Below are positions 1 through 23,959 of a stretch of 32,000 bases of DNA, piece after piece. A model generated the notes under the pieces. That model did not search any database, was not told the origin of the DNA, and worked only from the letters and a program-made list of their open reading frames with translations. A program made the position numbers and the translations under genes. Every line of letters starts with the position of its first letter. Within the stretch, counting starts at the first letter, position 1. The DNA lies in NCBI GenBank assembly GCA_965219605.1, contig CBDCOC010000001.1:1844229-1876228 (forward strand), given 5' to 3'. Origin of the DNA: Bryobacterales bacterium (GTDB taxonomy: Bacteria; Acidobacteriota; Terriglobia; Bryobacterales; UBA6623).

Positions 1-1
1 G

Positions 2-955
2 ACCGGGGCGCAGATCGCGGGTCGCCCCAGCATGGGATCTTGGCTGAGCTACGGCTTGGGAAGCGAGTCCAGCGAGCTGCCCAGCTTCGTCGTCATGCTC
101 ACGCAGGGCACCAGCGGGCAGCCGCTGTACGACCGGCTGTGGGGCTCGGGGTTCCTGCCGACGCGCTACCAAGGAGTCAAGTTCCGCTCGGTGGGCGACC
201 CGGTCTTGTACCTGTCAGACCCGGCGGGCATTTCGCGCGACCAGCGGCGCTCGTTCCTCGACGCGCTGGCCCAGCTCAACCGCAGGCAGTTCGAGGAGTA
301 CGGCGATCCCGAGATCGTGACCCGTGTCGCGCAGTATGAGATGGCATTCAAGATGCAGCGCTCGGTGCCGGAACTCACCGACCTGTCCGGCGAGCCCGAA
401 TCGGTGTTCGCGCTGTATGGCGAGCACGCGCGGCGCCCCGGCACCTACGCCTACAACTGCCTGCTCGCGCGACGTCTGGCCGAGCGCGGAGTGCGCTTCA
501 TCCAGCTCTACCACCGGGGCTGGGACCAGCACGCGAGGCTCAGGCGCGACATCCAGCGCCAGGCCGAAGCCACCGACCAGGCCTCGGCGGCCTTGGTGCT
601 GGATCTCAAGCAGCGCGGCTTGCTCGACGACACGCTCGTAGTGTGGGGCGGCGAGTTCGGGCGCACCGTGTACTGCCAAGGCACGCTCACCGAATCCGAG
701 TACGGGCGCGACCACCATCCGCGCTGCTTCTCGATCTGGCTGGCCGGCGGCGGCACGCAGCCGGGCCGGCTCTACGGGGCCACCGACGAGTTCAGCTACA
801 ACATCACCGAGAATCCCGTCGACGTGCATGACCTGCACGCCACGATGCTGCACCTACTGGGCGTCGACCACACCAAGCTTACGTTCAAGTTCCAAGGGCG
901 GCGGTTCCGGCTCACCGACGTGCATGGGAACGTGATCAAGCCCTTGCTGGCCTGA
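2..955 (+). CDS. DUF1501 domain-containing protein (sulfatase-like fold), 5' end outside window
   Basis: The frame of ORF 32..955 stays open back to base 2. Blocks [33 protein letters not shown] and GRDHHP match the DUF1501 family as I remember it. Confidence 0.85.
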
Positions 956-963
956 GCCGCGCT

Positions 964-1731
964 TCAGACAGACCGCGGGTCGAACCCGCACAGGCCGCGC
1001 CGCAGGCCTTCGATCTCGGCGTGCGCCGTGTGGTCGAAGTGCAGCGGCGTGACTGATACCAAGCCTTGCTGCACGGCCGCATAGTCGCTGCCGTCCGTGG
1101 CGGCCTCCACGGGCACTTCCTCGTGCATCCAGTAATACTCGCGGCCGTACGGATCGCGGGCCTCCACCATAAGGTTGCGCGAGATCTTACGGCACTGGTG
1201 GGTCACGGCCACCCCGGAGGGCAGGCAGGCGGGCACGTTCACGTTCAAGACGATGCCGGATGGCATGCCCTCCGCGAGCACTCGCTGCGCCAGGGCCGCC
1301 GCGATGCGGGCCGACGAGCCGTAATCGACGGACTGCCGCTGGTTGACGGAAACCGCGATGGCCGGGATGCCGTGCTTGGCCCCCTCCGCCGCGGCAGCGA
1401 CGGTGCCGGAGTAGAAGATGTTCTCGCCTAGGTTAGGACCGGCGTTGATGCCCGAAACCACGATGGCCGGCCGCTCCTCGAGTAACCGGGCGAGCGCCAT
1501 CATCACACTATCTGCGGGAGTGCCGTCCACCCCGTAGCGGTGCTCTCCCTTGCGCTCGAAGCGCAGAGGCCGGCGCAGGGTGATGCGCCGGCTCGCGGCG
1601 CTCTGCTCCGTTAGCGGGGCAACGGTGCGAATGCGTCCGAGCGGCGACAGAGCGCTTTCCAAGACATGGATTCCGTCCGCTTCGATGCCGTCATCGTTCG
1701 TGACCAGGATGAGCGGGCCGGGAGCTGGCAT
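964..1731 (-). CDS. surE: 5'/3'-nucleotidase SurE
   Basis: LILVTNDDGIEADGI near the N-terminus, plus SGINAGPNLG and FYSGTVAAAAEG blocks. The ATG at 1731 places the DDG motif about 10 aa from the start. The ORF stays open to 1839, so a longer form is possible. Confidence 0.85.
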   Translation of the reverse strand: MPAPGPLILVTNDDGIEADGIHVLESALSPLGRIRTVAPLTEQSAASRRITLRRPLRFERKGEHRYGVDGTPADSVMMALARLLEERPAIVVSGINAGPNLGENIFYSGTVAAAAEGAKHGIPAIAVSVNQRQSVDYGSSARIAAALAQRVLAEGMPSGIVLNVNVPACLPSGVAVTHQCRKISRNLMVEARDPYGREYYWMHEEVPVEAATDGSDYAAVQQGLVSVTPLHFDHTAHAEIEGLRRGLCGFDPRSV

Positions 1732-1816
1732 GCCTCTCTCAGGGTAGCCAAGCGGCGGCGGTAAGCGGAACTGCGGCCACCCGTCCGCCAAGGCGGGTGC
1801 TAGTCTTGATGGTGAC

Positions 1817-3043
1817 ATGCCGGCCGCCATTACCGACACTGCCTCAGAGCGGATCGTCGCTCGGGATCATCAGCGGGTCGTTCGCAACTACGGGCGCTAC
1901 CAACTGGTCGTCAATCGCGCGCAGGGCGTCTACCTCTACGGCGAGGACGGGCGCAAGTATCTCGACTTCCTGTCGGGCATCGGCGTGATGGCATTGGGCC
2001 ACTCCCACCCGAGAGTTGTCGCGGCGATCAACGACCAAATCGGCACATTGGTGCATTGCTCCAACCTCTACTACCACCCGCTGCAGGGCGAGGTGGCCCA
2101 GTTGCTCGCAGAATTGAGCGGACTGCAGCGCACCTTCTTCTGCAACAGCGGCTCGGAAGCCGTCGAGGCGGCCCTGAAGATCGCCAAGGGCTACGGCCGC
2201 GCCCGCCGCGGCGACAAGACCGAGATCGTCGCCCTGCAGCACTCTTTCGGCGGGCGCACGCTGGGCGCGATTTCCGTGACCGGGCAGCCCAAGTACCGCG
2301 ACCCTTTCGCGCCGGTGATCCCGGGAGTGCGGTTCGTCGCGCCGAACGACCTGCCCGCCCTTGAGGCCGCGGTCAGCGAGCGGACCGCGGGCATCGTGTT
2401 CGAACCGATCTTGGGTGAGGGCGGCATCATCGAAATTTCGGCCGAATTCGCCGCGGCAGCCCGCCAGCTGGCCACGGACCACGACGCGCTGCTGATCTGC
2501 GACGAGGTCCAGTGCGGCATGGGCCGCACGGGAGAGAATTTTGCCTTCCAGCATTGGGGCACCGATTTCCTGCCCGACGTGATCACGCTGGCCAAGCCGC
2601 TGGCTGCGGGGCTGCCGATCGGTGCCGTTGTCTGCAACGGGGCGGCCGCGGCGGTGCTGGGCCCCGGCCTGCACGGATCGACCTTCGGCGGCGGCGCCCT
2701 GGCCTGCCGCGTGGCCCGCGAATTCCTCGGCATGCTGCCGGAGCTGCTGCCGCACGTGCGCGAGATGTCGGCATACTTCCGCGCAGGCTTGGCGCGCTTG
2801 GCGGCCAGCTACGACTTCGTCGGCGGATTGCGCGGCAGGGGCCTGATGGTCGGCTTGGAACTGCGGGTGGCAGGCGGCGGCTTCGTGCCCGTGGCACAGG
2901 AATGCGGACTGCTGCTGAACTGCACGGCAGGCAACGTCTTGCGCTTTCTGCCGCCGTTCGTGATCGAGCGCGGGCATGTCGACGAAGCGATCGCCGCGCT
3001 GGACCAAGCGTTCCGGCGCGGCCCGCCCGACAGCGCAGCCTAG
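1817..3043 (+). CDS. argD: Class-III PLP aminotransferase, acetylornithine aminotransferase-like
   Basis: 408-aa ORF with GIGVMALGHSHP, FFCNSGSEAVEAALKIA, LICDEVQCGMGRTG, TLAKPLAAGLPIG (Schiff-base Lys context) and HGSTFGG. Confidence 0.85.
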   Translation: MPAAITDTASERIVARDHQRVVRNYGRYQLVVNRAQGVYLYGEDGRKYLDFLSGIGVMALGHSHPRVVAAINDQIGTLVHCSNLYYHPLQGEVAQLLAELSGLQRTFFCNSGSEAVEAALKIAKGYGRARRGDKTEIVALQHSFGGRTLGAISVTGQPKYRDPFAPVIPGVRFVAPNDLPALEAAVSERTAGIVFEPILGEGGIIEISAEFAAAARQLATDHDALLICDEVQCGMGRTGENFAFQHWGTDFLPDVITLAKPLAAGLPIGAVVCNGAAAAVLGPGLHGSTFGGGALACRVAREFLGMLPELLPHVREMSAYFRAGLARLAASYDFVGGLRGRGLMVGLELRVAGGGFVPVAQECGLLLNCTAGNVLRFLPPFVIERGHVDEAIAALDQAFRRGPPDSAA

Positions 3044-3106
3044 CGCTACCGTGTAGTTGCAAAAAGTACGCGACAACGGCATGGTCTGTGTGTTAGACCA
3101 TGGTCA

Positions 3107-4400
3107 ATGGAAGCGCAGTCGGAGATTCAACGGACGCTGGGCAGTGCTGCCGCGCTGGGGGTGGTGGCCCGCATTCTGGCGCAGGCAGAGTTTCCCAGCC
3201 GGCGGGCCTTGGGCCGCCGGATTTGTGCCGAGTTTGACTTCCATGACCAGTTGGGCCGGCGCAACTGGCGGGCTGCCTGCAAGCGCTGCGCTGCTTGGAG
3301 CAGAAATGGGAGCAGATCGTGCTGCCGCCCCGCGGTCGCGTACCGGCCGGCACGGGTCAGCCGGCGGCCCAGGCGGCGGGCGTGGCCTTGGCGGCAAGCG
3401 TGCCAGAGCACCTCGCGCAGGTCGAGGGGTTGGTGCTCGAGCCGGTCCGTGAGCGCGACGAGCGCTTGGTCTGAAATGCGCTGATCGCCGCTGAGCACCG
3501 CCAGGGGCTGACGACCTTTGCCGGGGCCCAGCTGCGCTACCTGGTGGGTTCGGCGCACGGCTGGCTGGGGGCCGTGGGCTTTGCGGCTGGCCGCGCGCGA
3601 ACGCTGGATGGGCTGGAGCGACGAGCAGCGGCGGGCCGGCTTGCAGCGCGTGCTGGGGCTGAGTCGGTTCCTGATCCGGGGCGGCTGCGCCAATCTGGCC
3701 AGCCACGTGCTGGGACGGCTGCGGCGGCGGGGCCGCCCGACGGTCGGCTGGAGGCAGAGATCGCGGGGCTGACAGCGCACCCGCAGGCGAGTCGCAAGCA
3801 GGCCCGCCCGGTGCGCCTGAAACGGCTGGCCAGTTGCGAGCTGCGCTGTCGCCAAGTGACGCTACCGGCCACCGTGGCCGGGACCGAGGCAGTGACGCTG
3901 TAGGGCGTGCATATCATGGAGACGGCCCCGTCGCAGGGCGAAGAGGCGGTGCAGTGGTACCTGCTGCCCAGCCTGCCGGCCGACAATGCCGAGAGCGGGG
4001 CGGAATGGTGCGGCACTACCTGCAATGCTGGCGCGTGGAAGACTTTTTCCGCGTGCTCAAGCCGGGCTGCAAGGTGGAGCACTTGGCCTTCCGCACGGCG
4101 GATCGGCTACAGCGGGCGATTGCCATCAACGCGGTGATCGCCTGACGGCGGATGGTCATGACGCTGCTGGGGCGGCATATGCCGGAGTACGCGGCGAGCT
4201 TGATGTTCAGCGATCCCGAACTGGAGTTCTTGCGGGACTACAGCTGCGAGTACAGGCTGGCCGCACCGGACAGCTTAGGCTTGGCGGTGCGCTTGGTGGC
4301 GCATTTGGGCGGCTACCGCGCTCACCAGCACGATCCGGAACCGGGCCACCAGTTGATGTGGCACGGCTACGACACGCTGACCAAGGGCCACCTTGGGACA
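3107..4400 (+). pseudogene. Decayed IS4-family (Tn5-like, DUF4338-containing) transposase gene
   Basis: Similarity is scattered over three + frames. AQLRYLVGSAHGWLGAVGFAA and RLAARERWMGWSDEQRRAGLQRVLGLSRFLIRGGCANLASHVLG are DUF4338-type blocks. YLQCWRVEDFFRVLKPGCKVEHLAFRTADRLQRAIAINAVIA and MTLLGRHMPEYAASLMFSDPELEFL...HLGGYRAHQHDPEPGHQLMWHGYDTL match a Tn5-like catalytic C-terminus. Several frameshifts and a large internal deletion are evident. Possible termini are CTGTGT at 3086 and ACACAG ending at 4489, a match of only 6 bp and therefore tentative. Confidence 0.7.
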
Positions 4401-4532
4401 TCAGATTGCCCGCAAGCGCGCTCTCGACGCCGCTACCGAGCGCTGAGCGGCAGCCTGTTGTCTCCAGTTTCCTATTTGTGGCTACACAGTAGGGCTAGCT
4501 GGGCCGCGGGCGGCTGCTACGATGGTCGCCGC

Positions 4533-5702
4533 ATGGAGATCCGGTGCTTGGAGACTCGCCACTGCGATGCCGGCTGGCGCAACTACCACTTCGTCAAGGT
4601 CACGGCCAGCGACGGCGTGATCGGCTGGAGCGAGTACGACGAGGACTTCGGCTCGGCCGGGGTGACAGCGGTGATCGAACGCCTGGCCCCGTCGCTCAGA
4701 GGCCAGGATCTCGGGGGCCACGAGCGCATCTACAGCGAGTTGTTCTGCAAGTTGCGGCCAGCCGCCGACGGGGCAGCCAGCCAAGCGCTCGGGGCGATCG
4801 AGAATGCGCTGCTGGATGCCAAGGCCAAGCTGCTGGGGCTGCCCTGCTACGCGCTGTTCGGGGGCAAGGTGCGCGACCGCATCCGCCTGTACTGGTCGCA
4901 CTGCGCCACCTGGCGCATCAGTCACCCGCAATTCTACCCGCCGGCGATCAGCGATCTTGACGGCGTCGCCAGCATCGGGGCCGAAGCCAAGCGAAGGGGC
5001 TTCACGGCGCTGAAGACCAACATATTCGAGTTCGGGGAGGCGGGCGCCCGCTGCTGGCGGCCGGGATTCGGCACGCCTTTCGAGCCCGGCCGTAACATGG
5101 AGCGCTCAACCCTGCGCCACTTGCGCTCGCATTTGGAAGCCCTGCGCTCTGGCGCCGGGCAGTCCATGGACATCCTGCTGGACCTGAACTTCAACTGCGC
5201 CACCGAGGGCTACCTCAAGGTCCTGCGCGAATTGCGGGATTTCGGCCTCTTCTGGGCGGAAATCGACTCGCGCAACCCGCGCGCCTTGCGCCATATCCGC
5301 CAGCAGAGCCAGTGTCCGATCAGTTCGTGCGAGACACTGCTGGGATTGCGGAACTTCTTGCCGTTCTTCCAGCAGGAGGCCGTGGACGTCGCCATCATCG
5401 ACGCGGTTTGGAACGGCGTCTGGCAGAGCTTGAAGGTAGCGGCCTGCGCCGAGGCCTACGAGGTCAACATTGCGCCGCACAACTTCTACGGGCACCTGGC
5501 GACCATGATGAATGCCCACTTCGTGGCCGCAGTGCCGAACCTCCGCATCATGGAGACCGACATCGACCGCCTGAGCTGGGACGACGACCTCTTCACCGAG
5601 GCCCCGGTGATCGAGGATGGCCACCTGTTGCTGCCCGACCGGCCGGGCTGGGGGACGGAACCCGTCGAGCAGGCGCTGCGCGACCATCCGGTGCGCAATT
5701 GA
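4533..5702 (+). CDS. Mandelate racemase/muconate lactonizing enzyme family protein (enolase superfamily, sugar-acid dehydratase-like)
   Basis: MEIRCLE...WRNYHFVKVTASDGVIGWSEY...GAIENALLDAKAKLLGLPCYALFGG...LLDLN...WAEID...ISSCE. The ATG at 4533 matches where homologues start. The 127 codons upstream in the same frame are the tail of the transposase relic. Confidence 0.85.
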   Translation: MEIRCLETRHCDAGWRNYHFVKVTASDGVIGWSEYDEDFGSAGVTAVIERLAPSLRGQDLGGHERIYSELFCKLRPAADGAASQALGAIENALLDAKAKLLGLPCYALFGGKVRDRIRLYWSHCATWRISHPQFYPPAISDLDGVASIGAEAKRRGFTALKTNIFEFGEAGARCWRPGFGTPFEPGRNMERSTLRHLRSHLEALRSGAGQSMDILLDLNFNCATEGYLKVLRELRDFGLFWAEIDSRNPRALRHIRQQSQCPISSCETLLGLRNFLPFFQQEAVDVAIIDAVWNGVWQSLKVAACAEAYEVNIAPHNFYGHLATMMNAHFVAAVPNLRIMETDIDRLSWDDDLFTEAPVIEDGHLLLPDRPGWGTEPVEQALRDHPVRN

Positions 5703-5721
5703 GGCAGCTGGCCCCCGGCGC

Positions 5722-7249
5722 TCAGGCGGCAGGCCCGCCCTCCACGGCGTCCGCCCGGCGGGGCAGCCCGGTGCTCAACACCCGACAGCCGTCGTCGGTC
5801 ACCTCGACCATGTCCTCAATGCGAATTCCGAGGTTTTCCGCGGGCAGGTACAAGCCCGGCTCGATGGCAAGGACCATGCCCGGTTTCAAGGCGCGATCCG
5901 GTGGCGGCGGGTCATGCACGTCCAGGCCCACGTGATGGCCGATGGCGTGCGGCAGGTAGGGGTCCACCCCGCGGGGCGCCCTCTGACGCAAGGCGCGCTG
6001 GGCGGTCGACTCGATGCTAGACCGGGAAGGGCCGCCAAGGAAGGCGCCGGGCCTGACAGCCGCAACCGCCCGGCCTTGGGCCTCGAGCACTGCCTCATAA
6101 AGCAGCCGCTGCCGCTCGCTGAAACGCCGGCCGACGGGAATGCTGCGGGCGATGTCGGCAGAGTAGCGGGACCGCTCGCCACCGGCATCGATAAGTAGTG
6201 CCTGCGACAAAACCCCCTAAAATCCGTTCTCCACTAGCAAGACGGGCCGATTGGTCAACAAAGTAAAGACTTGTTGGAGCAGGCTGCACGGTATGTAGTG
6301 GGTTGCCGCCAGGCGAAGATCGCAGCTAATGGGCCGGATCCGAGCCAACGGACCGCTGCCCGCCTAATCTTCGCCTGCGTCGATTGCACGCAACCGTTTT
6401 GAATACAACGACATGGATGCTTTTGTCGCAAGCACTAAGTAGCACCTGCCCCCGTGCCAAGCGGTCGGCATTGCGCTGGTAGTGCAGGATCGTCGCATTC
6501 GCCCCCGCGGCAACGATCGGAGGAAAGGCCAGCCGCTCGCAGCCGGCACGGAACGCGCCGCTGATCAATCCGGCGGCAACGTCACGCTCGGTCGCGCCGT
6601 CGGCAACCTTGGCCCACGCCTCGCGAAAAGCCGCTTCGGTAGCTTGGACGGCCGCTTCGATCAGCGCGACTTCGGACGGGGACTTGACGGAGCGCAGCGT
6701 GGCGAGTAGGCCGCGGATGACGCGTGCCGGCCGGGACCCTGCCGCTTCCACGAGACGCTCGTGCCGCGAGCGCTCGGGGAAGTTGTCCGGCACTGCGTGG
6801 AACAGGCTCGCCAGCGCGCCCCGTTCCCGCAGCAGGGCACGCGCGACGCGCCGGAACTCGGACGCGGCGAGGACTTCCGCGAATCCCAAGTGCCCGGCAT
6901 CCTCCGGCCGCAAGCTCGGCCCGGACCACTTCGCGCCCGGACCGCTCGCGCCGCCCAGGAACAAGATCTCGCGATACGGGCTGCGGCCGCGGGCTGGAGC
7001 GATCAGCAACGCCGCGCCCGGCTCCTCATGCCCCGTGAGATAGAAGAAATTGCTCTCCTGGCGAAAACCGGTGAACCCGGACCGTCCTTCGGACTCGGTC
7101 GAGCCCAGCAGGGCGATCACGCCGCGGCCGACCCGGCCCGCCAGCGCCTGGCGGCGCCGGGCATATTCCGCCGCGCCAATCCCGCCGCCCGCCCGCAGGC
7201 AAGGCAGGGCCGCACAAGCAGCCAAGAACGACCGGCGAGTCCGCGCCAA
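5722..7249 (-). pseudogene. pepP: Xaa-Pro aminopeptidase (M24B, PepP-like) interrupted by a 238-bp insertion
   Basis: The 5' part (about 7249 down to 6437) carries a creatinase/AMP_N-like region, FRQESNFFYLTGHEEPGA, VKSPSEVALIEAA and PPIVAAGANATILHY...GQVLL. The 3' part (6197 down to 5722) carries IDAGGERSRYSADIARSIPV, HAIGHHVGLDVHD and LAIEPGLY...GIRIEDMV. The two parts are in different frames, separated by the element plus its duplication. A candidate TTG start at 7249 precedes an RTRRSFLAACAAL signal-like segment; this start is uncertain. Confidence 0.8.
6198..6435 (+). mobile_element. MITE-like non-autonomous element, copy 1 (238 bp)
   Basis: Termini are GTGCCTGCGACAAAA and TTTTGTCGCAAGCAC (14/15 inverted repeat). 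It is flanked by direct TAAGTA at 6192-6197 and 6436-6441. It has no credible ORF. It appears identical to the reverse complement of 22607-22844. Confidence 0.85.
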
Positions 7250-7342
7250 TCCCTCAGGGTAGCGAAGGGCTTCGCCCGGATCGGGCCGGCATCCCGGGGC
7301 GCTATGCTCGAATATGCAGCGCCCGCGGCTGGCGCAAGACGG

Positions 7343-7801
7343 ATGAAGAAAGTGAAGCTGGTCACCGACGGCTCCTGCCTCGGCAACCCGGGACCGGGCG
7401 GCTGGGCCGCGATCCTGCGCTACGGCAAGCATTCCAAGGAACTGAGCGGCTGGGAGGCCCGAACGACCAACAATCGCATGGAAATGACCGCGGTCGTGAA
7501 GGGCCTGCAAGCCTTGCGGGAACCCTGTGCCGTCACCCTTGAGATCGACTCGCAGTACGTCAAGAACGGCGTAACGCGCTGGATGGACCGGTGGAAGCGC
7601 GACGGTTGGACGACCGCCGCGAAGCAGCCCGTGAAGAATCAGGACTTATGGCAGGAGCTGGCCGCCGCGATTCCGCGGCACCAAGTGCGCTGGATCTGGG
7701 TGAAAGGACATGCTAGCCACGAGGACAACAACCGCTGCGACCGGCTTGCCAAGGCCGCGGCGCGGTCCCAAGGCCGGTCTCCCAGCCAGACTTCGGCCTG
7801 A
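7343..7801 (+). CDS. rnhA: Ribonuclease HI
   Basis: MKKVKLVTDGSCLGNPGPGGWAAIL...TTNNRMEMTAV...IDSQYV...WIWVKGHASHEDNNRCDRLA, giving the full DEDD catalytic context. 152 aa from the ATG at 7343. Confidence 0.9.
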   Translation: MKKVKLVTDGSCLGNPGPGGWAAILRYGKHSKELSGWEARTTNNRMEMTAVVKGLQALREPCAVTLEIDSQYVKNGVTRWMDRWKRDGWTTAAKQPVKNQDLWQELAAAIPRHQVRWIWVKGHASHEDNNRCDRLAKAAARSQGRSPSQTSA

Positions 7802-7900
7802 GACTTTGGCCGGCGCACGGGGCTAGGGGCCAGTTCGTCGATCATGCCCCGTACCGAGCTCTCATGCGCGCGGGGTCTATCGTAGAATGAGTCTCAGGTC

Positions 7901-8566
7901 GTGTCGAGGCAATTCGCATCGCTGCTTGTGAGGTTGGCCAACGGCGTGAGCTTGGTCCGGCTTGCCTCCGTGCCGGCCATCATCCTGCTCATCTGGCGAT
8001 CGGGTGATGGCGAGGCCCCGCGCTACGCCGCTTTCTGGCTGGTCTGCGGGCTGCAGATCGGCGACATGCTGGACGGCTTCCTAGCACGCAAGGGCACCCG
8101 CCGCCTTGCGGTGCGCAACAATTTCGGCGAGGTCATCGACCCCATCGCCGACAAGATGTACCTCGGCGCGGCATTCATCACGCTCGCCATAACCAACCAA
8201 ATCCCCGCTTGGCTCGCGCTGCTGGTCGTGGCGCGAGACACTGGCATCGTGGCCGGCTGGTCGTTCGTGTACAAGCGCTACGACATCCGCCTGCGCCCCA
8301 ACCTGCTGGGCAAGCTGACCGATGGCAGCCTAGCCTTGCTGCTGTGCATCGTACTGCTGGGATGGAGCGGCGACGCGGTTGCGAACCTGACCCGGGCCGT
8401 CGCGTTGCTGGTCGTAGCCTCGGGATATTCCTATGGCCGATTGGCAATTCGCAGCGTCTCTGTGATGACGATCCGACGCTTGCGCGCGCTTGCCGTGGCA
8501 AAGCGCCAGGAGCGCAGGCAGGCCGCCAAGGCACGCATCAAGGGCGGCGTCAGCACGATGCCCTAA
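7901..8566 (+). CDS. CDP-alcohol phosphatidyltransferase family protein
   Basis: The motif DMLDGFLARKGTRRLAVRNNFGEVIDPIADK matches D-x2-DG-x2-AR...G-x3-D-x3-D. Several hydrophobic helices are present. GTG start at 7901. Confidence 0.8.
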   Translation: MSRQFASLLVRLANGVSLVRLASVPAIILLIWRSGDGEAPRYAAFWLVCGLQIGDMLDGFLARKGTRRLAVRNNFGEVIDPIADKMYLGAAFITLAITNQIPAWLALLVVARDTGIVAGWSFVYKRYDIRLRPNLLGKLTDGSLALLLCIVLLGWSGDAVANLTRAVALLVVASGYSYGRLAIRSVSVMTIRRLRALAVAKRQERRQAAKARIKGGVSTMP

Positions 8567-8582
8567 CGGGCAAGAGGCGGGT

Positions 8583-9627
8583 TCAGTCCTCGGCCAAGTT
8601 CCGCTGCAGGCCGGGTCCGGGCCGGTCAATGCCCAGCCTCTGCATGTCCGGGCCGGTCGGCGACGCTAGGATCGAATCAGGGGCGACGCGCCCGGCCAGC
8701 CGGCGCATGACCGCAACCAACACTCCGCCCAGGATCATCAGCAAGGCGAGCAACCCGCACAGGATGAAAGTGTCCAAAATGATATTGGCCAAGCTGTCGT
8801 GGCGCTCGGGGTCTTCCACGTGCTGCGTGACCTCGGCGCGGTAGCGCACCTTGGCGAGCAGGAGCTGCGCCGCGTCCGAGGCCTGCGGGCCGAACGCCAC
8901 AGCGATCAGCGGGCCGTCCTGCTTCGCCAGCCAGCCGCCGGCCTGCTGGAAGGCGGCAACCTGCCCGCGCGCGATCGGATTCGAGGGATAATTCCACACG
9001 ACCATCGCCATCTCGCCAGCGTCCGTCAAGTACCGGCCGTAATAGCCCTCGGGGGAAAAGTGGAACCCGACCATCGCCGGGGAGATCTGCGGGGCAAGCC
9101 GTTCGAGCGACACCGGCCCCAAGATGAGCCGCCCGGTGCCGGGCACCAACGCCTCCGCGGGCACGTACTGCAGGACCGGAGGATCCGCTGTGGGCTTGGG
9201 CCGCGGGAGATAGGCCAGCGCGAGCTCGACGTCTTCCTCGTCAGGAGTGTCGCCTTGGAGGGACACCACGTAGTTGGCGAACTGGATCACCGTCAAGTCG
9301 CCCTTCTCGACCGCCCTTTCGCCGCGCTCGCGCGCCACGCCATCGGCGGGCCGCAGCCACGCATAGGCAGCCACCGCTCCGGTATCGTCATAGAACTGCA
9401 GCGCCCGGAACAGCAGCGAGCGCCCGTCCGCAGCGCGGTATTCCGCCTCTTCGGCCTCTTCCAAGCCGAATTCCTCGAGCACCGCGAGGTCGGCGGGTTC
9501 GAAAGGCCGCGGCGCGAGCCGCTCGAACGGCCCTAATGCCTCGTGCAGCAGATCGGCGCCGGCGGGCGGGGCGGCCGCGAGCGCCAGGACAAGCAACAGG
9601 GCTGGACGCAGGCCTGCCGGCGCGGCA

Positions 9628-9647
<20 letters not shown>
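8583..9647 (-). CDS. Hypothetical exported protein with C-terminal membrane anchor
   Basis: [31 protein letters not shown] is signal-peptide-like and [26 protein letters not shown] is a C-terminal TM helix. I recognise no family. The ATG at 9647 overlaps the secA 3' end by 20 nt. Confidence 0.6.
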
Positions 9648-12438
<2,791 letters not shown>

Positions 12439-12632
12439 GGGAAATCGGCGCCCGGAGCGCCAATCTATTTCTTTATTGTAGTCACGGCTGCCGGGCGGAG
12501 GGACTGGATGCGGCAGCGTGGGTGGCCGGCACATGGCGCACTCCCGAGTTGTCTGCGATTGCCGGCCGACCGCGGCTCGAGCAGCCCCAGCCGGCGGCGG
12601 TCATGGACGAAGCAGGGCGCAATAGATCGAGG

Positions 12633-12655
12633 GCTGCGTCGAATCCCGACGCAGC
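12633..12655 (-). other. 9-bp-stem hairpin in the secA leader, downstream of the small ORF
   Basis: GCTGCGTCG-aatcc-CGACGCAGC is a perfect stem. No clear U-tract follows on either strand. Confidence 0.3.
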
Positions 12656-12679
12656 TGCTGCCAATGAGGCCAACCTGAC

Positions 12680-12814
12680 TTATACGCCTAGAGCGGCCAC
12701 GCATGCAACACAGCCCACGGGCATCGCAATAAAGATCACCACCAGTGCCACTATCAGTGCCGCAATAACGCCCATGCTGATCTTGAAGCCCTTGTTAAAG
12801 CTGCTTTCTTCCAT
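12680..12814 (-). CDS. Possible small membrane protein (44 aa) upstream of secA
   Basis: MEESSFNKGFKISMGVIAALIVALVVIFIAMPVGCVACVAALGV contains one clear TM helix. The stretch is locally AT-richer. A GAGG lies just upstream of the ATG, but the spacing is short. The ORF could extend to 12871. Confidence 0.3.
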   Translation of the reverse strand: MEESSFNKGFKISMGVIAALIVALVVIFIAMPVGCVACVAALGV

Positions 12815-13112
12815 AGCCTCTAGTTTACTCCCCGGTAGAGTAGAGAGAGATTTAACACAGCGATTCGTCACTGCCCAGATAGGTCGGCGGGAAAGTGCTC
12901 AGTATCTTTGAAGGTCAAGCCTGCTTCGGCCGGCTCCAGCGCGAGGAGCCGCACGCAGCGCTGGACTGGCACGCGCAGCAACCGGGGACTTGCCTCGCGG
13001 GCGGCGGGGCCGCCAGAAACGCCCCCGGAGCACAATCTGGAATCGCTGCTGCGCTAGGGCGTTTCGTGCCAAGACTCCCGGCAACTGCTCGCCTGCCGCT
13101 GCACGGCAGAGA

Positions 13113-14714
13113 CTACAGCCCCCACACCGTGATCGGCAGTTCGCCCGCTTGCGGCTCGCGGCGGAACAAGCGCTCGTCCCACGAGCGGCTAGGCCGCAAG
13201 TCGAAAACCACCAAATGCCCCGCTTCCGCCCCGCAGCGGTCCATGTACTCGGCCGTCTGCTCCCGCCCCTCGCGCAGCAAGCTCTCCAACCCAACTTTCG
13301 CCCTGCGCACTTTGCACTCGATGACGTAATTGCGCGGGCGCACCCGGCCCCCTGGCCCGCCGCGGCCCCACTCGATCAACAAGTCCGTGCGCCCGCGACC
13401 CACCGCGTACTCGCGCCCGATGCGCCCGCCGCTGTTGACCACCCGCTGCAGGTAGGCATGCAGCACCAACTGCGGCCCCGCCTCGGCGTGCCGGTAGCGC
13501 TCCACCCACGACTCGGCGTGCTCGCGGAAATAGCCCTGGAACGCGCTCAGCAGCCCGGCCACATCCAGACTGCCGTCGGCCTGCACGTACCACTCCGGCT
13601 TGACTTGCAGCTCAAGCCCCGATTGCAGCACTGCGGTCAGCTCGCGCGGCACCACCTCGGCATAGATCGGGTTCGCCATGCGCACTTCGCCCTTAGCAGC
13701 CACCAAGCCCAGATCGCGCACATACTCCAAGTCGCGTAGCGAGTAGTCCCAATCCGCAGACCCGGCCAGCATGGGCAGGATCACGCGCCGCACGCGCTCT
13801 TCGCGCAACTTGTCGGCCAGTTGGTCGAGGTGCGTCACGCGCCGCACAATGAGCGCCTCCTTGGCCGAGTCGATGGCTTGCATGCTGACGAGCTGCGTCG
13901 GGTCCGCACCGGGCTGGGCCCGCAAACAGGCCTCATATGCCAAGGCGTTGACCAGCCACGGCTGGCCGCAGGTCAGCGCCCAGATACGTTCGACCGCCGC
14001 CGTCTCGAAGGCTTGGCCGCGCTCGGCCGTGTACTGCGCCAGCAACTCCCGCACCTCTCTATGCGAAAAATCGCCGAGGCGCAGCGATTCGGCCTTGATG
14101 TTGAAGGCGCTGCCGCCCTTGACGTTGGCCCCCTCCCGGCTGGAATAGATCTGGTAGTCGCGCACGTCGCGCACGCCGCACAGGATCACGCTTTGCGGGA
14201 AATGCTGCGGCCGTCGGTCATAGTTCGCCCGCAACTGGCGCAGCACCGAGATCAGCGTGTCGCCGACCAGCGCATCGATCTCGTCGAGCAGCAGGACCAG
14301 CGGCTTGGCACTTGCCGCCGACCAGCGCACCAGCGTCTCGCCGAGCGCGCCATCCGGGCCCTCGCTCTGCAGGTAGTGCGCCCGCTGGCGGTCCACGAAG
14401 TCGTCCTGCAAAACATCGCGGGCACGGGAGGCCAACTGCCCGAGCACCCCTTGCATCGCCCGGGCGGTGTCCTCGCCGGCCGCTTGGCCCGCTTCCACGT
14501 TCACGTACAGGCAGCGGTACAGGCCCTCCGCGTTGAGACGGTCTTGCAGCGCCAGCAGGGTCGAAGTCTTGCCCGTCTGGCGCGGAGCGTGCAGGACGAA
14601 GTACTTCTTGCGGGCGATCAGTTCAAGGATCTCAGCGAGGTTGACGCGCGCCAGCGGATCGATGCAGTAATGCTCGCCCTCATTCACTGGGCCCTCGGTG
14701 TTGAAGTAGCGCAC
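13113..14714 (-). CDS. AAA-ATPase-like protein with C-terminal PD-(D/E)XK nuclease-like domain
   Basis: RYFNTEGPVNEGEHYCIDPL...KKYFVLHAPRQTGKTS (Walker A), PLVLLLDEIDAL (Walker B) and C-terminal GRGRTDLLIEW...NYVIECKV (D...ExK). Homologues begin close to YFNT, so the GTG at 14714 is preferred over the ATG at 14987. Confidence 0.8.
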   Translation of the reverse strand: MRYFNTEGPVNEGEHYCIDPLARVNLAEILELIARKKYFVLHAPRQTGKTSTLLALQDRLNAEGLYRCLYVNVEAGQAAGEDTARAMQGVLGQLASRARDVLQDDFVDRQRAHYLQSEGPDGALGETLVRWSAASAKPLVLLLDEIDALVGDTLISVLRQLRANYDRRPQHFPQSVILCGVRDVRDYQIYSSREGANVKGGSAFNIKAESLRLGDFSHREVRELLAQYTAERGQAFETAAVERIWALTCGQPWLVNALAYEACLRAQPGADPTQLVSMQAIDSAKEALIVRRVTHLDQLADKLREERVRRVILPMLAGSADWDYSLRDLEYVRDLGLVAAKGEVRMANPIYAEVVPRELTAVLQSGLELQVKPEWYVQADGSLDVAGLLSAFQGYFREHAESWVERYRHAEAGPQLVLHAYLQRVVNSGGRIGREYAVGRGRTDLLIEWGRGGPGGRVRPRNYVIECKVRRAKVGLESLLREGREQTAEYMDRCGAEAGHLVVFDLRPSRSWDERLFRREPQAGELPITVWGL

Positions 14715-14875
14715 GACAGCTTGAGTATGGCATGGATCCTCGGCACCAGCGACGGCCGCCGGCAATTCCCACTGTGGCTTTTTTTCGTCGCGCGCACCGC
14801 TGCGCCGCAGGCCGCTGTGCAGCAAGCCTCGGCCCTGCTTGCCTAGCCGCCCGTGCGAGAAAGTGCGGGATGTCC

Positions 14876-14889
14876 GGGGGGGGGGGGGG
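14876..14889. repeat. Homopolymeric G14 (C14 on the gene strand) tract
   Basis: Counted directly: G at every position from 14876 to 14889. Confidence 0.95.
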
Positions 14890-15217
14890 CAGCCATTCCC
14901 AGTATGGCTTCGAAGGATGGACTGGGCGGGCAGCGATTGGCCTGCCAGGGAGGACGGCTGGTCTAGTGGGGCGGCAGATCGGGACACACGGCCGCTGGCC
15001 GGTTGCTACCGCGCAGCGATGCGGCATCACCCGATTCAGAATGCGCTGACACCTCCGTCAAGTCGGTCCCCGTACGAATGGGAGATCGGATCATCATCTC
15101 GCTTCTCCCTAATGGTCGGTCAAAGGCCGGGAGGAGCCGACAACCCGGCTGCCCGCCGCTTCCGCCAGCCGCTTGCCATCCACCACGGAACTGGCAGCAC
15201 CGGCAAATCCAGATTCT

Positions 15218-15240
15218 GCGCGGCTGGAGACCGCGCTTTT
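15218..15240 (+). terminator. Candidate intrinsic terminator on the + strand
   Basis: GCGCGG-ctggaga-CCGCGC followed by TTTT. No annotated + strand gene lies upstream. Confidence 0.3.
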
Positions 15241-15296
15241 GCAGCCCCAAGGCGTACGGCACCATCCCCGTCCAGCAAAAATCAGCGATGGAGCAA

Positions 15297-15812
15297 TCAG
15301 GGCTGCGAGCCGCGCGGAGCCGCCCCTTTTTTCAGGTAGGCGTAGTAGCCGAGATCCTGACCGGTGAGATGCTTGGTCGCCCAGATGATCTGGCCGACAT
15401 GCCCCGCGAAGTGGGTCAGCACGTGCATGATCGCGTGCAGCACGGTCACCTCGTAGACTTGGATGCTGCGGGTTTCCAGCAAGGAATCGGCCGGCACGGC
15501 CGCCAGCACGGCGTCCGCCTCGTCCACCGTGCCGCTCAGGCGCTCGGTCAGCGCCGCAGCTGGGAGCGTGTCGCGCGTTGCAAATTCCCAATCCCGGTCG
15601 CGATTGTCCGGCTGCCCGCCCACGCCGCTGACGATCCACTGGCGCACGTTGCCAGACAGATGCAGGACTAGGTTTCCGATCGAATTCTCGATTGCATGCT
15701 CGCGATGCCAGATCTGCTGCTCCGCCAACCGGCCGAGGCAGTCGCTCACCCGCGCGCAGCCCTGCCGGAGCTCCTTGCGCGAGACCCGCAGGAACTCCGC
15801 GCCTGTCTGCAT
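15297..15812 (-). CDS. DinB-like / DUF1572 family protein
   Basis: NSIGNLVLHLSGNVRQWI...HAIMHVLTHFAGHVGQI is the His-rich four-helix-bundle pattern of the DinB superfamily. ATG at 15812. Confidence 0.8.
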   Translation of the reverse strand: MQTGAEFLRVSRKELRQGCARVSDCLGRLAEQQIWHREHAIENSIGNLVLHLSGNVRQWIVSGVGGQPDNRDRDWEFATRDTLPAAALTERLSGTVDEADAVLAAVPADSLLETRSIQVYEVTVLHAIMHVLTHFAGHVGQIIWATKHLTGQDLGYYAYLKKGAAPRGSQP

Positions 15813-15844
15813 TGCGGGCACTCCCCGCTGCTCGTGCGGCACGT

Positions 15845-16276
15845 TCACTGCAAGGGGGAGAAATCGGTGGCCTTGAGCCACTGATTCTCGATCGCGGCAA
15901 CGAGCCGGCCGCCTTTGCGGGACGCGGCGGCGACGGCCTTCCACGCCGGGTCCGCGGCGAAACTCGCCCATGATTTCCTAGCCGCCTCGCGGCTGTCGTG
16001 GGCAAGGATGTAAACCAGCGTGCTGCCCGTTGCATCGCCCTCGGCGGGCGTCCAGTACCCAATCAGTTGCATGCCATGCTTGACGAACAGATGGTTCGTG
16101 TGCTCGCGGAAGCGCGCCAGGAGGTCTGGCAGCTTGCCGTCCGCAGCGGTGTATGTACGCATTTCGAAGACGCGCCCGGCGTCTTGGTGCCCGGCGCTGT
16201 CGTTGTCGTCGTCAGCCGGGGCGGAAAGCGGAGCTAGCAGAAGCAGCGGCAGAAGCGCTGCGGGGAACTTGGCCAT
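15845..16276 (-). CDS. NIPSNAP family protein with signal peptide
   Basis: MAKFPAALLPLLLLAPLSAPA leader, then VFEMRTYTAADGKLPDLLARFREHTNHLFVKHGMQLIGYW, which is typical of NIPSNAP. Confidence 0.75.
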   Translation of the reverse strand: MAKFPAALLPLLLLAPLSAPADDDNDSAGHQDAGRVFEMRTYTAADGKLPDLLARFREHTNHLFVKHGMQLIGYWTPAEGDATGSTLVYILAHDSREAARKSWASFAADPAWKAVAAASRKGGRLVAAIENQWLKATDFSPLQ

Positions 16277-18147: not shown

Positions 18148-19482
18148 ATGGCCTCGCACATCCACGAGCGGGCAGCGAGCACGCTGATGCGCGAGCTTAG
18201 CCGGATCGTCTCGCAAGAGGTGCGCGATCCGAGCGTCACTGCGGTCCGGGTGAGCAAGGTCGAACTCTCGCCGGACAAGCGCAACGCGCGTGTCCTGGTC
18301 GCATTCTGGGATCCCAAGGACGGCGAAGAAGCGAGCCAAACCCCTTTGGCAGCGCTGGAGCGCGCCACGCCTTTCATTCGCAAGGCACTCGCCGGCAGCT
18401 TGCGCATGCGCCACGTGCCCGAACTGCGCTTCGCGTACGACCTGGCCGAGCAGCACACCAATCGCATCGAGACGCTGCTAGAGGGCATACACGAGGGGGG
18501 CAAGAAGGGACTGGCCGTGCTGCTCGCCGCCTGCGCCCTGCAAGCGGCCTGGACGCCTCGCTTGTCAGCGCTCGAGCGGCTCGAGTCCTCCGCGGCGATC
18601 ATGGGCAGCGAGTTTCGCATTGCCTGCTACGCCCCCACCAAGAAGCTCGCCGCCGGTGCGGTCACGGCCGCGCTGGACGAAGTCCGGCGCGTGGATTCCA
18701 TGCTCAGCAATTACAAGCCGAGCAGCGAGTTGAGCCGCATCAACCGCAAGGCCGGCCGCGGCAAAGTGCCGGTCTCGGAGGAAATGGCCGCACTACTCGA
18801 ACTTTGCCTGCGCTATTCCAGAGCCAGCGACGGCGCGTTTGACATCACCGTGGGAGCGCTTGTCAAGGCATGGGGCTTTTTCGGGGGCGAGGGCGGCATG
18901 CCTGGCCTTTGGAGCTTGTGGCTGGCGAGGCGCAACAGCGGCTACCAACACCTACAGGTGGACCGGGCCAAGGGCACGGTGCGCTTCCTGCGTTCCGGTC
19001 TCAAGCTAGATCCGGGAGGGATCGGCAAGGGCTATGCGGTGGACCGGGCCGTCGCGGCTCTCCGCGAGTACGGAGTCGACACAGCGCTGGTTAGTTCGGG
19101 CACCAGCAGCATTTTCGGGCTGGGAGCGCCGCCCGGCAGCGCCGCTGGCTGGGAGTTGGACCTCCGCGGAGCCAAAGCCGCTGATCGCGGGTTCATGACC
19201 GTGACGCTGAAGAACGAAGGCTTGTCGACTTCCGGATCCTACGAAAAGTTCTTCGAAAAGGACGGCGCGCGCTACGGCCACATCCTTGACCCGCGCACGG
19301 GGCGGCCCGCTGCGGGCATGACCGCGGTGTCCGTGATTGGCCCGAGCGCTACCGACACCGAGGCATGGTCGACCGCGCTGTACGTCAACGGAAGCGGGTG
19401 GGCGCGCGCCCATGGCGTGCCGCAGGGGCGGGCACTGCTCTGCCCGGACGGCCGGGCTTGCGGCTGGCTCGCCAGCGATTGA
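18148..19482 (+). CDS. Single ORF joining ribosome-binding factor A (aa 1-115) to FAD:protein FMN transferase ApbE (about aa 120-444)
   Basis: RbfA blocks: RAASTLMRELSRIVSQEVRDPSV...VSKVELSPDKRNARV...MRHVPELRF. ApbE blocks: MGSEFRI...SELSRIN...DGAFDITVGALV..., DPGGIGKGYAVD, GHILDPRTGRP and TDTEAWSTAL. There is no stop codon between them. Lipobox LLAAC has its Cys at 18532-18534. Confidence 0.7.
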   Translation: MASHIHERAASTLMRELSRIVSQEVRDPSVTAVRVSKVELSPDKRNARVLVAFWDPKDGEEASQTPLAALERATPFIRKALAGSLRMRHVPELRFAYDLAEQHTNRIETLLEGIHEGGKKGLAVLLAACALQAAWTPRLSALERLESSAAIMGSEFRIACYAPTKKLAAGAVTAALDEVRRVDSMLSNYKPSSELSRINRKAGRGKVPVSEEMAALLELCLRYSRASDGAFDITVGALVKAWGFFGGEGGMPGLWSLWLARRNSGYQHLQVDRAKGTVRFLRSGLKLDPGGIGKGYAVDRAVAALREYGVDTALVSSGTSSIFGLGAPPGSAAGWELDLRGAKAADRGFMTVTLKNEGLSTSGSYEKFFEKDGARYGHILDPRTGRPAAGMTAVSVIGPSATDTEAWSTALYVNGSGWARAHGVPQGRALLCPDGRACGWLASD

Positions 19483-20908: not shown

Positions 20909-20984
20909 GCGGGAGTAACTCAGCTGGTAGAGTGCGACCTTGCCAAGGTCGATGTCGCGGGTTCGAGTCCCGTCTCCCGCTCCA
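20909..20984 (+). tRNA. tRNA-Gly (anticodon GCC), CCA encoded
   Basis: Hand-folded cloverleaf. Acceptor stem GCGGGAG/CTCCCGC, D arm ACTC..GAGT, anticodon arm CGACC-TTGCCAA-GGTCG, T arm GCGGG-TTCGAGT-CCCGT. Confidence 0.9.
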
Positions 20985-21000
20985 CTCCGGCCGAGGCTGT

Positions 21001-21075
<75 letters not shown>

Positions 21076-21539
21076 CTCCCTATCGCCTTGGTCTGGCTAT
21101 GATTATCTTTGTTTTCAGTCACTTGCCGATGTCCCGTATTGGCACATGAGCGGATCAGTTCGGGGCAAATCGCATCAGTCCAGAGCAGTTCGGAGGGCAG
21201 GGCGGGCCCGAAGTGGCCGCTTCCCTTTAGCTACGACCGCGGCGGCAAGAAGGGCTAGCACGCGATGGTCTGCGGCTTTCCCTGCGCTCTCGATGTTCTT
21301 GCCGACAACACCGTCGATCCGACCAGTTGTAGCGCAAAGGCCAGCCCTGCGCGAACACTTCGGCATCGCCCTGACCTCGCTCGCCCGGCCCGCGATAATA
21401 AAACAAAAATGAATAAGAATGACCTGAATGGCTAGCCTCCCAGCACCCTCGCTCGCCCGATTCCCGCCTACTTGCCACGAGGCACAACCCGATCTTCCCC
21501 CGGCTATCCCCATCCATGCTGCGGTCGCCCTTCGGGATC

Positions 21540-21782
21540 CTACGCGGCCACTCTCTGGCCGCGACGCAAAACCGGCAAAAATAATTTTTCGCTGGGCACT
21601 CGGCATTGCGTCTTTTCATCGCAGCACAGCACGCTCGACTTCTCAGGCGGATAATCGATGAATACCGGGGAATCGGGAGGATCTGGCCACGGAACACCGT
21701 TTGCTTCCATCAATCCGTCGATTACGCTCCAGTCCGTGTGCCCCTCAACGAGCAGCTTCCGGGGATGATTCCCTTTGGCAAC
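21540..21782 (-). pseudogene. Possible Toprim-like (DUF3226/DUF4435/RloB-type) partner remnant
   Basis: Directly after the ATPase TGA, in the same frame: VAKGNHPRKLLVEGHTDWSVIDGLMEANGVPW... The LLVEGxxD motif resembles the N-terminal Toprim glutamate motif of ATPase-associated nucleases. There is no start codon, the frame stops after 80 codons, and I see no recognisable continuation. Confidence 0.3.
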
Positions 21783-23142
21783 TCACCGAACCTCTATGCC
21801 CCGCTCAGCGGCGGCGAGGATAGCTTCCCGGCTGAACCTGACCGCTTCGCTCCGACTCCGGTCGATCCTCTGAATCGTTACTTCGCCGGGCTCGGATTTC
21901 GCGATTACCGCCAAGCTTTCGTAGCAGTCGCGACTGTGGGTCGTGGCGAACACCTGAACCGACAGCATACCCGCCTGTTCATTTATCATCCGCCACATTT
22001 CTTCCATCACCGAGAAGTGCAAGCCGGTGTCGATCTCGTCGACCAACAGGACACCTCCCTCGGAGTTCGCGAGAGAAAGCGCGAGCCCTAGCATCCGCCA
22101 CATTCCATCGCCCACACTTCCGATCGGAACGCGGTCGACAACTTCGCGAAGCTTGATTACCACGCCCCTGGGCGCATCGCGATCAAAGCGGCCACGGTCG
22201 TCTGCAACCAGTGCAATTCGCTCGATGGCCGGCTCAACGATGCGAAGTGCCTGCGCAATGGCCTTTTCCTTGGGTGTCAGGACGAACTTGCTGAACATGC
22301 GAACAGCATCCGCCGCTGTCACGCCCCTGGTTCTAACGAATTGCACCGTCTTGCTCGAGCCGTTTCGTCCGCGCGCCTGCAGTCGAGGCCAGAACAGCAG
22401 TCCTTCATCGGTGAGGGCTGCCTTGTAGTGGTCATCCGGGGCCGACCACTCGACGTGAAGGGCAAGCGGCTCGTCTTCGACGCCGTCTGGCACTTCCGCA
22501 CTCCATTCGTCGCAATTCCGGACGGTCGGGCCCTCGACGTACATCGTCACCGTGTTATTCCAACTCGCTCCAGGGATGTCATCGCTACGGTCCGCTTCGA
22601 TAACTAGTGCTTGCGACAAAAGCATCCATGTCGTTGTATTCAAAACGGTTGCGTGCAATCGACGCAGGCGAAGATTAGGCGGGCAGCGGTCCGTTGGCTC
22701 GGATCCGGCCCATTAGCTGCGATCTTCGCCTGGCGGCAACCCACTACATACCGTGCAGCCTGCTCCAACAAGTCTTTACTTTGTTGACCAATCGGCCCGT
22801 CTTGCTAGTGGAGAACGGATTTTAGGGGGTTTTGTCGCAGGCACTAACTATCCGGCCACCAAGCTCGCGGTTCGCGAAAATATGCGACATATCGAGACCA
22901 TCCGATCGAGTGCCGGGTGGAGCAGTTGGATCCTCGTCGCTCGAGTAGCCCCATTCCCCCCTACGCCGCGCAATGTCTGACAGCACTCTTGGGTTGCCAG
23001 GCGAACACAGCAATTCGATGCACTCCAGAATCGAGGTCTTGCCGCAGTTGTTCGCGCCGACGAGCAGGTTGACGCGGCCGAGCCCTTGCATCTGGAACGA
23101 GTCTAGACCGCGGTAGCCCTGAATTCGTATCGATGAATACAA
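21783..23142 (-). pseudogene. ABC/AAA_21-type ATPase (OLD/AbiL/PARIS-AriA-like) interrupted by the 238-bp element
   Basis: N-terminal part: (TTG)YSSIRIQGYRGLDSF...VNLLVGANNCGKTSILE (Walker A), preceded by GGAG 6 nt upstream. C-terminal part: VLLVDEIDTGLHFSVM (Walker B) and VFATTHSRD (H-loop). The junction GGRIV / IEADR is split by the element at 22607-22844. Confidence 0.8.
22607..22844 (-). mobile_element. MITE-like non-autonomous element, copy 2 (238 bp, inverted relative to copy 1)
   Basis: Termini are GTGCTTGCGACAAAA and TTTTGTCGCAGGCAC. It is flanked by direct TAACTA at 22601-22606 and 22845-22850. Its reverse complement reads identically to 6198-6435 on base-by-base comparison by eye. 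Confidence 0.85.
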
Positions 23143-23300
23143 TGCGCTCTCCGTAACGGTGGAGGTGTTTTAAGCATGACACGCTCAATCACATGCTCCG
23201 GGCGTGGTGCTGTCTCGGTTTAGTCCACTGAACGACCACCGACTGAAAGTCGCTGGCACGGCTAAAGCCGCCTGAGAGGTGCCCAGCTGAAGCCGGCTCA

Positions 23301-23545
23301 TCAGGGCGACTCGGTCGCTACCACTCGGAAGCCCTCTACGTCTTCGTCCCATCTCTGCCCTTCGATGCACTCCCGCACCGCCTGCTCGTCCACTGCCCCC
23401 ACCGTCGCGCAGAAATCCCCCCGTCCGCACAGCCGCTACCCCCAGTACCGCTTCCGCAAATGCGGGAACTCGTCCTGCAACCGCCGTGACGAACGCCCCT
23501 TGCTCTTGCTGTACTCCTAGCTCAGCTCCTGACACGACTCTGTCG
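23301..23545 (-). pseudogene. IS200/IS605-family TnpA (Y1 transposase) C-terminal relic
   Basis: The hand translation gives ...QELS*EYSKSKGRSSRRLQDEFPHLRKRYWG*RLCGRGDFCATVGAVDEQAVRECIEGQRWDEDVEGF. This matches the conserved LKGRSS..L..EFP.L.KRYWGQHLWARGYFC.TVG block. In-frame stops lie at 23517-19 and 23436-38. The N-terminal catalytic half is missing. Confidence 0.65.
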
Positions 23546-23552
23546 CGAAAAT

Positions 23553-23587
23553 TTGACTTAACGTTCATTATCATATACATTGTATAT
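23553..23587 (+). promoter_or_regulatory. Candidate hipBA promoter with overlapping palindromic operator
   Basis: TTGACT (23553-58), N17, TACATT (23576-81). A perfect 7-1-7 palindrome ATATACA-T-TGTATAT (23573-87) is nested in the outer inverted repeat CTTAAC...GTTAAG. It lies 31 nt upstream of the hipB ATG. Confidence 0.45.
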
Positions 23588-23617
23588 GTTAAGGATTGCA
23601 AACGTGGATTTTATAGC

Positions 23618-23959
23618 ATGAAGAAGAATCCATTCTCAAACGTGCCTATACCCGTCGGCCACGCCCTGCGTAAGTTGGGGCACGATATCCGGGATGCGCG
23701 CCGCCGCCGCCGCATCCCCGTAGCGATCCTAGCCGAGCGAGCGTCTGTCAGCCGCACCACCTTGAGCAAGGTCGAGAAGGGCGAGACCGGCGTCTCGCTG
23801 GGTATCTACGCCACTGTGCTTTTCGTGCTGGGCATGATCGACCGGCTCGCCGATGTCGCCGACCCGCGACATGATTCCGTCGGCCTTGCGCTTGAGGAGG
23901 AGCACCTGCCGGAACGCATCCGGCTCCCCCGCCCCGGCAAGCCCAAAGGTGCGGCGTGA
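23618..23959 (+). CDS. hipB: XRE-family HTH antitoxin (HipB-like)
   Basis: HALRKLGHDIRDARRRRRIPVAILAERASVSRTTLSKVEKGETGVSLGIYATVLFVLG is an XRE helix-turn-helix. Its stop overlaps the hipA start. Confidence 0.8.
   Translation: MKKNPFSNVPIPVGHALRKLGHDIRDARRRRRIPVAILAERASVSRTTLSKVEKGETGVSLGIYATVLFVLGMIDRLADVADPRHDSVGLALEEEHLPERIRLPRPGKPKGAA

Follow-up and report, generated by a model that had tools for sequence, protein, structure and literature searches.

An aminopeptidase P gene (pepP) of a Bryobacterales bacterium is interrupted by a 238-bp element that is very probably a MITE, a non-autonomous DNA transposon, and one that has recently been active. The element lies at 6198-6435 of the window, by which is meant the whole 32,000-nucleotide (32-kb) stretch of DNA that was analyzed. 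Its MITE traits are terminal inverted repeats (TIRs), a 6-bp target-site duplication (TSD), the absence of coding capacity, identical dispersed copies, and the occurrence of both filled and empty alleles; in every tested respect except the partner transposase, it is a textbook MITE. What is described here is ordinary transposon biology, observed very soon after insertion. A preliminary description made from the sequence had called the element MITE-like, and that reading is supported, as each of the tests run to refute it came out in favor of a MITE.

The copy in pepP (copy A, plus strand) begins with the left TIR GTGCCTGCGACAAAA (6198-6212, plus strand), found both by repeat search and by terminus scan, and ends with a right TIR (6421-6435, minus strand) that reads TTTTGTCGCAAGCAC and whose reverse complement, GTGCTTGCGACAAAA, matches the left one at 14 of 15 positions. 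TAAGTA directly adjoins the element on the left (6192-6197) and on the right (6436-6441). The repeat search returned an inverted repeat of 17 nt with 94% identity, whose arms are at 6196-6212 and 6421-6437, and a direct repeat of TAAGTA whose two copies start 244 bp apart, in agreement with the 14/15 termini and flanking hexamers reported beforehand. Written for the family, the end pair is GTGCCTGCGACAAAA ... TTTTGTCGCARGCAC, and the first 20 nt of the left end (to 6217) are invariant across all family members. Within the window, the terminus has four exact matches and six in total at up to three mismatches; recurrence at this level is not attributable to chance, because 1.45 matches are expected and none of 100 shuffles reached six. 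The G+C content is 0.55 in the element compared with 0.65 in the window.

No coding or other annotated function was recognized in the element. Its longest ORF is 58 aa, and none of six variants of its internal ORFs is on record as a called protein among 15 billion proteins, which bears out the earlier statement that it holds no plausible ORF. Neither the element nor its 257-bp relative (see below) matched an Rfam family, even at E values up to 10, and a scan for sites resembling promoters or terminators came back empty. The element had no BLASTN match among PLSDB plasmids or INPHARED phages, and the 40-nt left end gave short chance matches only when compared with plasmids.

The interrupted gene is a minus-strand M24B peptidase gene, and the earlier placement of the insertion proved exact to the base. 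Its 5' part (6436-7225, minus strand) encodes AMP_N and the start of the M24 domain, from a TTG start codon (7225-7223) that is also the start of the intact 419-aa orthologue, and the 3' part (5722-6197, minus strand) encodes the remainder of M24, with its conserved motifs DAGG, HHVG, EPG and IED. Two codons separate the split point from the first motif in the conserved core of M24, which lies downstream of it. As originally described, the minus-strand frame enters the element, terminates, and resumes in another frame, and the two parts are called as separate products of 299 aa (P0123) and 162 aa (P0122). Excision of 6198-6441 (244 bp), which removes the element and one TAAGTA, gives a single minus-strand open frame reading ...ARGQVLLIDAGGERS... 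/ ...RLARGQVLLIDAGGERS..., and the predicted return of the M24 block in frame is borne out by Pfam, with AMP_N and Peptidase_M24 found in the repaired protein as one uninterrupted match (2-208 of 208 profile positions).

Comparison with other genomes identifies both the intact gene and the empty site. More than 100 pepP homologues all read through ...LLIDAGG... without the element. Intact 419-aa PepP proteins that are identical or nearly identical to the repaired frame are encoded on three other contigs, with P0001 differing from the repaired protein by one residue; contigs of 917 kb and 3.30 Mb in sister assemblies carry the intact gene. The 90% PepP cluster also contains products of 299 aa and 162 aa, both on one contig of 3,068,232 bp (the 3.07-Mb contig), and the split pepP evidently accounts for both, one product per half, because 162 aa fits the 3' ORF of the window (5722-6210). 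In a Bryobacterales MAG with conserved synteny to the window and a nucleotide identity of about 95-96% (L036; GCA_026709245.1), pepP is intact and the insertion point reads GGCATCGATAAGTAGCACCTGCC, with one TAAGTA and no element, which is the predicted empty site. Moreover, in an independent assembly from ENA (L035), pepP is filled at this very position by the identical element with its duplication, so the junctions are not chimeric. Two possible objections named in the preliminary description, that orthologues might carry the same segment and that the assembly might be a chimera, are answered by these comparisons.

A second copy (copy B; 22607-22844, minus strand) is found 16 kb from copy A, with 100% identity over 238 bp and in the opposite orientation, and the earlier claim that the termini are unmatched elsewhere in the window was therefore mistaken. 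Copy B is flanked by its own duplication (22601-22606 and 22845-22850), which reads TAACTA on the plus strand and TAGTTA in the orientation of the element. It splits a gene for an AAA_21 / PDC-M38A-like ATPase after residue 97, into a 5' part (22845-23142, minus strand) and a 3' part (21783-22606, minus strand). When copy B and one hexamer are excised, a 371-aa protein is restored that matches Pfam AAA_21 (1-299 of 304 positions) and the PADLOC candidate defence protein PDC-M38A at full length (1-383 of 383 positions, E = 2e-74). Many homologues of 371 aa align to 100% of this repaired ATPase and read through the insertion site, and P0149, from the 3.30-Mb relative, reads ...ELGGRIVIEADRS... 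across the site uninterrupted. Aminopeptidase P and the PDC-M38A-like ATPase are almost certainly both inactivated in this strain. The surrounding region (20909-25215) starts with tRNA-Gly and tRNA-Cys genes (20909-21075), followed by an apparent island that contains the split ATPase gene, an 80-aa remnant with a weak match to PDC-M38B, and a toxin-antitoxin pair consisting of an HTH protein (23486-23959) and a HipA-like kinase (23956-25215).

Further copies of the 238-bp element were detected through their traces in proteins and directly as DNA. A six-frame peptide search showed that four host proteins bear MITE-derived tails: a C5 DNA methyltransferase (P0126), a PSCyt2 protein (P0127) and an S8 peptidase (P0128), all encoded on the 3.07-Mb contig, where the two halves of pepP are also found, and a fatty-acid desaturase (P0125) of the 95% relative GCA_026709245.1. 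In another assembly of the same organism (L040), a copy at 2404-2641 that is 100% identical to copies A and B, with the TSD TACGTA, splits an S8 peptidase gene, and its excision restores an open frame of 1146 codons; the S8 peptidase product of this locus is also on record on the 3.07-Mb contig. The desaturase gene of GCA_026709245.1 is split by a variant with 90.8% identity (L041, 6882-7119), which has perfect 15/15 repeats and the TSD TAGATA. The copy number, which had been left to be counted, is at least five in the organism, three of them known as DNA and 100% identical and two inferred from protein tails. The four 238-bp DNA copies are each flanked by a perfect 6-bp duplication of their own, and the reading frame is restored on excision every time; the flanking hexamers had been proposed to be true duplications, and every copy examined agrees. 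Genes are interrupted at all six resolved 238-bp sites, that of the desaturase variant among them, and the insertions occur in both orientations relative to the host gene. Three of these six were found through protein read-through, which biases the sample toward genes; the two copies in the window are free of that bias.

A degenerate 20-mer covering both ends was used to scan 185,579 species genomes. A 257-bp sister subfamily is present in two other Bryobacterales MAGs, with four full copies and one decayed copy in CAYWUV01, and one full copy and one cut by the locus edge in CBDBKU01. The identity of the 257-bp sequences to the window element is only about 58%, and between the two MAGs it is 71-72%. 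Three features are nevertheless shared with the element in the window: the 20 invariant nucleotides of the left end, a right end that is related, and duplications of 6 bp (TAACTA, TAYGTA, TAACTA, TACATA and TATATA). One 257-bp copy (L015, approximately 3652-3920) appears by eye to interrupt a NYN/LabA-like gene (...GVDVRMATDMITLAWV|DNYNVAVLVSSDRDF...); if this host gene is confirmed, the sister subfamily also inserts in genes. A decayed solo member was found at L001 (1497-1722), with a 26-nt left end that is intact and identical to that of the window element, a degenerate right end, and no duplication. It adjoins ORFs that, from their translations, resemble Uma2-family endonucleases; the locus was considered as a full IS and rejected, being a decayed solo copy beside Uma2-type genes. 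Matches outside Bryobacterales (L013, L018 and others) fall within ordinary coding sequence and were dismissed as chance.

Every fully resolved copy of the 238-bp and 257-bp types (9 of 9) is flanked by 6-bp TANNTA duplications, one of them with a single mismatch, and the simplest reading is a 6-bp stagger at a TANNTA target. Models with a 2-bp TSD, in which the element would be TAGTGCC...GGCACTA, or with a 4-bp TSD lead to the same TANNTA empty site; the 6-bp model is preferred because the other two need a further assumption, namely that the ends of the element mimic the target. TANNTA occurs 15 times in the window, four of these being the duplications that flank the two elements and two lying inside the MITEs.

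A central hairpin (6310-6377) is formed by an 11-bp perfect stem, CAGGCGAAGAT / ATCTTCGCCTG (arms 6310-6320 and 6367-6377), around a smaller hairpin. The stem core GCGAA..TTCGC is at the same relative position in all three subfamilies, and the CAYWUV copies show one compensatory change in the stem, from G:C to T:A, and one G:T pair. As a sign of function, this conservation across just three independent lineages is suggestive. The fold of the element is more stable than that of shuffled sequences (z = -3.3 and -4.3), with the terminal repeats contributing much of this stability.

Transposition of the MITE would depend on a DDE-type transposase, encoded elsewhere in the genome, that binds the termini and moves the element in trans; its binding sites are likely to be the 20 invariant nucleotides at the left end and the sequence in the subterminal region, which is semi-conserved. 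This enzyme would cut with a 6-bp stagger at TANNTA and then join the element in, and gap repair by the host would yield the 6-bp duplication. We infer mobilization in trans and DDE chemistry from the combined TIR and TSD anatomy. Among the 185,579 GTDB species genomes, the exact terminus scan returned MITE copies and chance matches only, with no autonomous element with matching termini. An exact 20-mer scan of JGI metagenomes yielded two chance matches without TA flanks or a second repeat, and an 18-mer scan of IMG/VR yielded two chance matches in AT-rich phage DNA. When the six-frame stop-free peptides of the element were compared with the protein collection, no transposase sharing peptides with it was found, the only matches being the host proteins whose tails derive from the MITE. 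That the copies are identical and that their presence differs between close relatives points to a very recent burst, and these features, together with the genic sites, suggest that it was too recent for selection to have cleared the insertions.

The preliminary description had also compared the termini with four IS elements in the window. The termini are indeed unlike those of IS elements there, but only two IS could be confirmed, not four. One (28808-30780) is an IS of 1973 bp with 21-bp TIRs (GCTAGCCTGAAGTTCCAAGCC, 20/21), for which a flanking direct repeat was not recognized, and its product is a 598-aa transposase of the IS1634 family (NF033559, 323.8 bits; Pfam DDE_Tnp_1). The other is a 1451-bp insertion (3044-4494) that is absent from the syntenic region of L036 and has CTAG on both sides, with imperfect terminal repeats (CGCTACCGTGTAG... 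/ CCCTACTGTGTAG...), located at the stop codon of a class-III aminotransferase gene. It is a degenerate IS or an IS damaged by assembly errors, because an IS4/IS701-like transposase is represented by frameshifted fragments only. Elsewhere in the window, a single 444-aa frame (18148-19482) combines a ribosome-binding factor A domain (7-111) with an ApbE flavin-transferase domain (152-416); this may be an unusual fusion, or else two neighboring genes that were read as a single ORF.

It could be argued that an assembler spliced a repeat into two genes. The source looks like a long-read metagenome assembly, and the sister assembly L035 (ENA ERZ25072146 contig_40) is noisy: it is 97.3% identical to window positions 1-16044 in an alignment that opens 149 gaps, and its secA call is fragmented. 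L035 looks like a noisy long-read assembly, and small frameshifts in these assemblies are not to be over-read. However, the junctions are identical to the base in that independent assembly, the four DNA copies come with separate, perfect 6-bp duplications and with frames that are restored on excision, and target duplications are not something that an assembler makes, so an artefact is extremely improbable. A self-splicing intron, or another intervening sequence removed at the RNA level, would leave the host genes functional, and both the location in coding sequence at all six resolved 238-bp sites and the conserved central hairpin, with a fold more stable than shuffles, would fit such an element. 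This explanation deserves almost no credence, since no group I or group II intron or other Rfam family matches, 238 bp is below the size of a group II intron, TIRs and target duplications are not intron features, and both orientations relative to the host gene are represented among the copies, which a strand-specific splicing RNA could not accommodate in all cases.

Among transposon families, an IS630/Tc1-mariner-type MITE, comparable to Correia and RUP and duplicating TA, is suggested by the TA that directly flanks every copy on both sides, and the Tc1 terminus, CAGTGCTGGCCAAAAA, bears a loose likeness to that of the MITE. The empty site in L036 nevertheless shows that six bases were duplicated, not two, and excising the element with TA alone leaves a 4-bp frameshift in pepP, which makes this affiliation very improbable. 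A deletion derivative of an IS1634-family element, moved by an IS1634-family transposase, is somewhat easier to entertain, although still unlikely. A transposase gene of this family is present in the window (28885-30681; NF033559 score 323.8 bits, cut-off 100), and the member ISGka5 has been shown experimentally to produce 6-bp direct repeats on insertion (PMC8024623). Yet the terminal repeats of the window member, the one member compared, are unrelated to those of the MITE, this member shows no TANNTA duplication and has no peptide in common with the MITE, and 6-bp duplications are also made by several other families. A further proposal is that the family is the footprint of an undescribed Bryobacterales IS lineage, whose transposase would act with a 6-bp stagger at a strict TANNTA target, and that the hairpin is a functional DNA or RNA structure, serving transposition or exerting an effect on the host, rather than a leftover. 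The hairpin has been kept, through a compensatory change, across subfamilies that are only about 58% identical; taken as a whole, this proposal is distinctly unlikely.

Read as a recently active MITE, the 238-bp element offers a clean illustration from nature of a bacterial MITE at work, with identical copies and with filled and empty sites in close relatives. Among the genes that it has knocked out are one for an aminopeptidase and one for an ATPase that is a candidate for anti-phage defence, and the host belongs to an uncultured soil acidobacterium lineage with poorly catalogued mobile elements. For annotation, the two pepP halves are to be treated as one disrupted gene, and likewise the two ATPase halves. 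The MITE sequence can be used as a strain marker and as bait for its transposase. Moreover, a strict TANNTA target leaves few landing sites in a genome with 65% G+C (approximately one per 3 kb in the window), and this scarcity makes insertion sites fairly predictable.

Examples of MITEs in bacteria include Correia, RUP, Nezha and Chunjie. The 238-bp element agrees with bacterial MITEs in its small size, its TIRs of at least 10-15 bp and a TSD within the range of 2-10 bp (PMC11602168), and also in the absence of a transposase, the presence of several copies per genome, and a stable hairpin fold. It differs from known MITEs in sequence, which is without a match in plasmid and phage collections or in Rfam, and in location: approximately 90% of prokaryotic MITEs are intergenic according to a census (PMC11602168), whereas all six resolved copies of the 238-bp family are genic. 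With the IS1634 family, the likeness is restricted to the length of the duplication (5-6 bp direct repeats, which are not family-specific), and the termini of the IS1634-family element of the window (GCTAGCCTGAAGTTCC...) are unrelated to those of the MITE, with no common sequence. To our knowledge, no hAT transposases have been described in bacteria. A literature search for TANNTA returned the hAT target consensus only, with the 8-bp hobo-type consensus NTANNTAN containing a TANNTA core (PMC3014272). Eukaryotic hAT elements duplicate 8 bp, whereas the duplication here is 6 bp and the bases just outside the hexamer are not the same on the left as on the right; because of this 6-bp length, the resemblance is treated as a coincidence of target preference.
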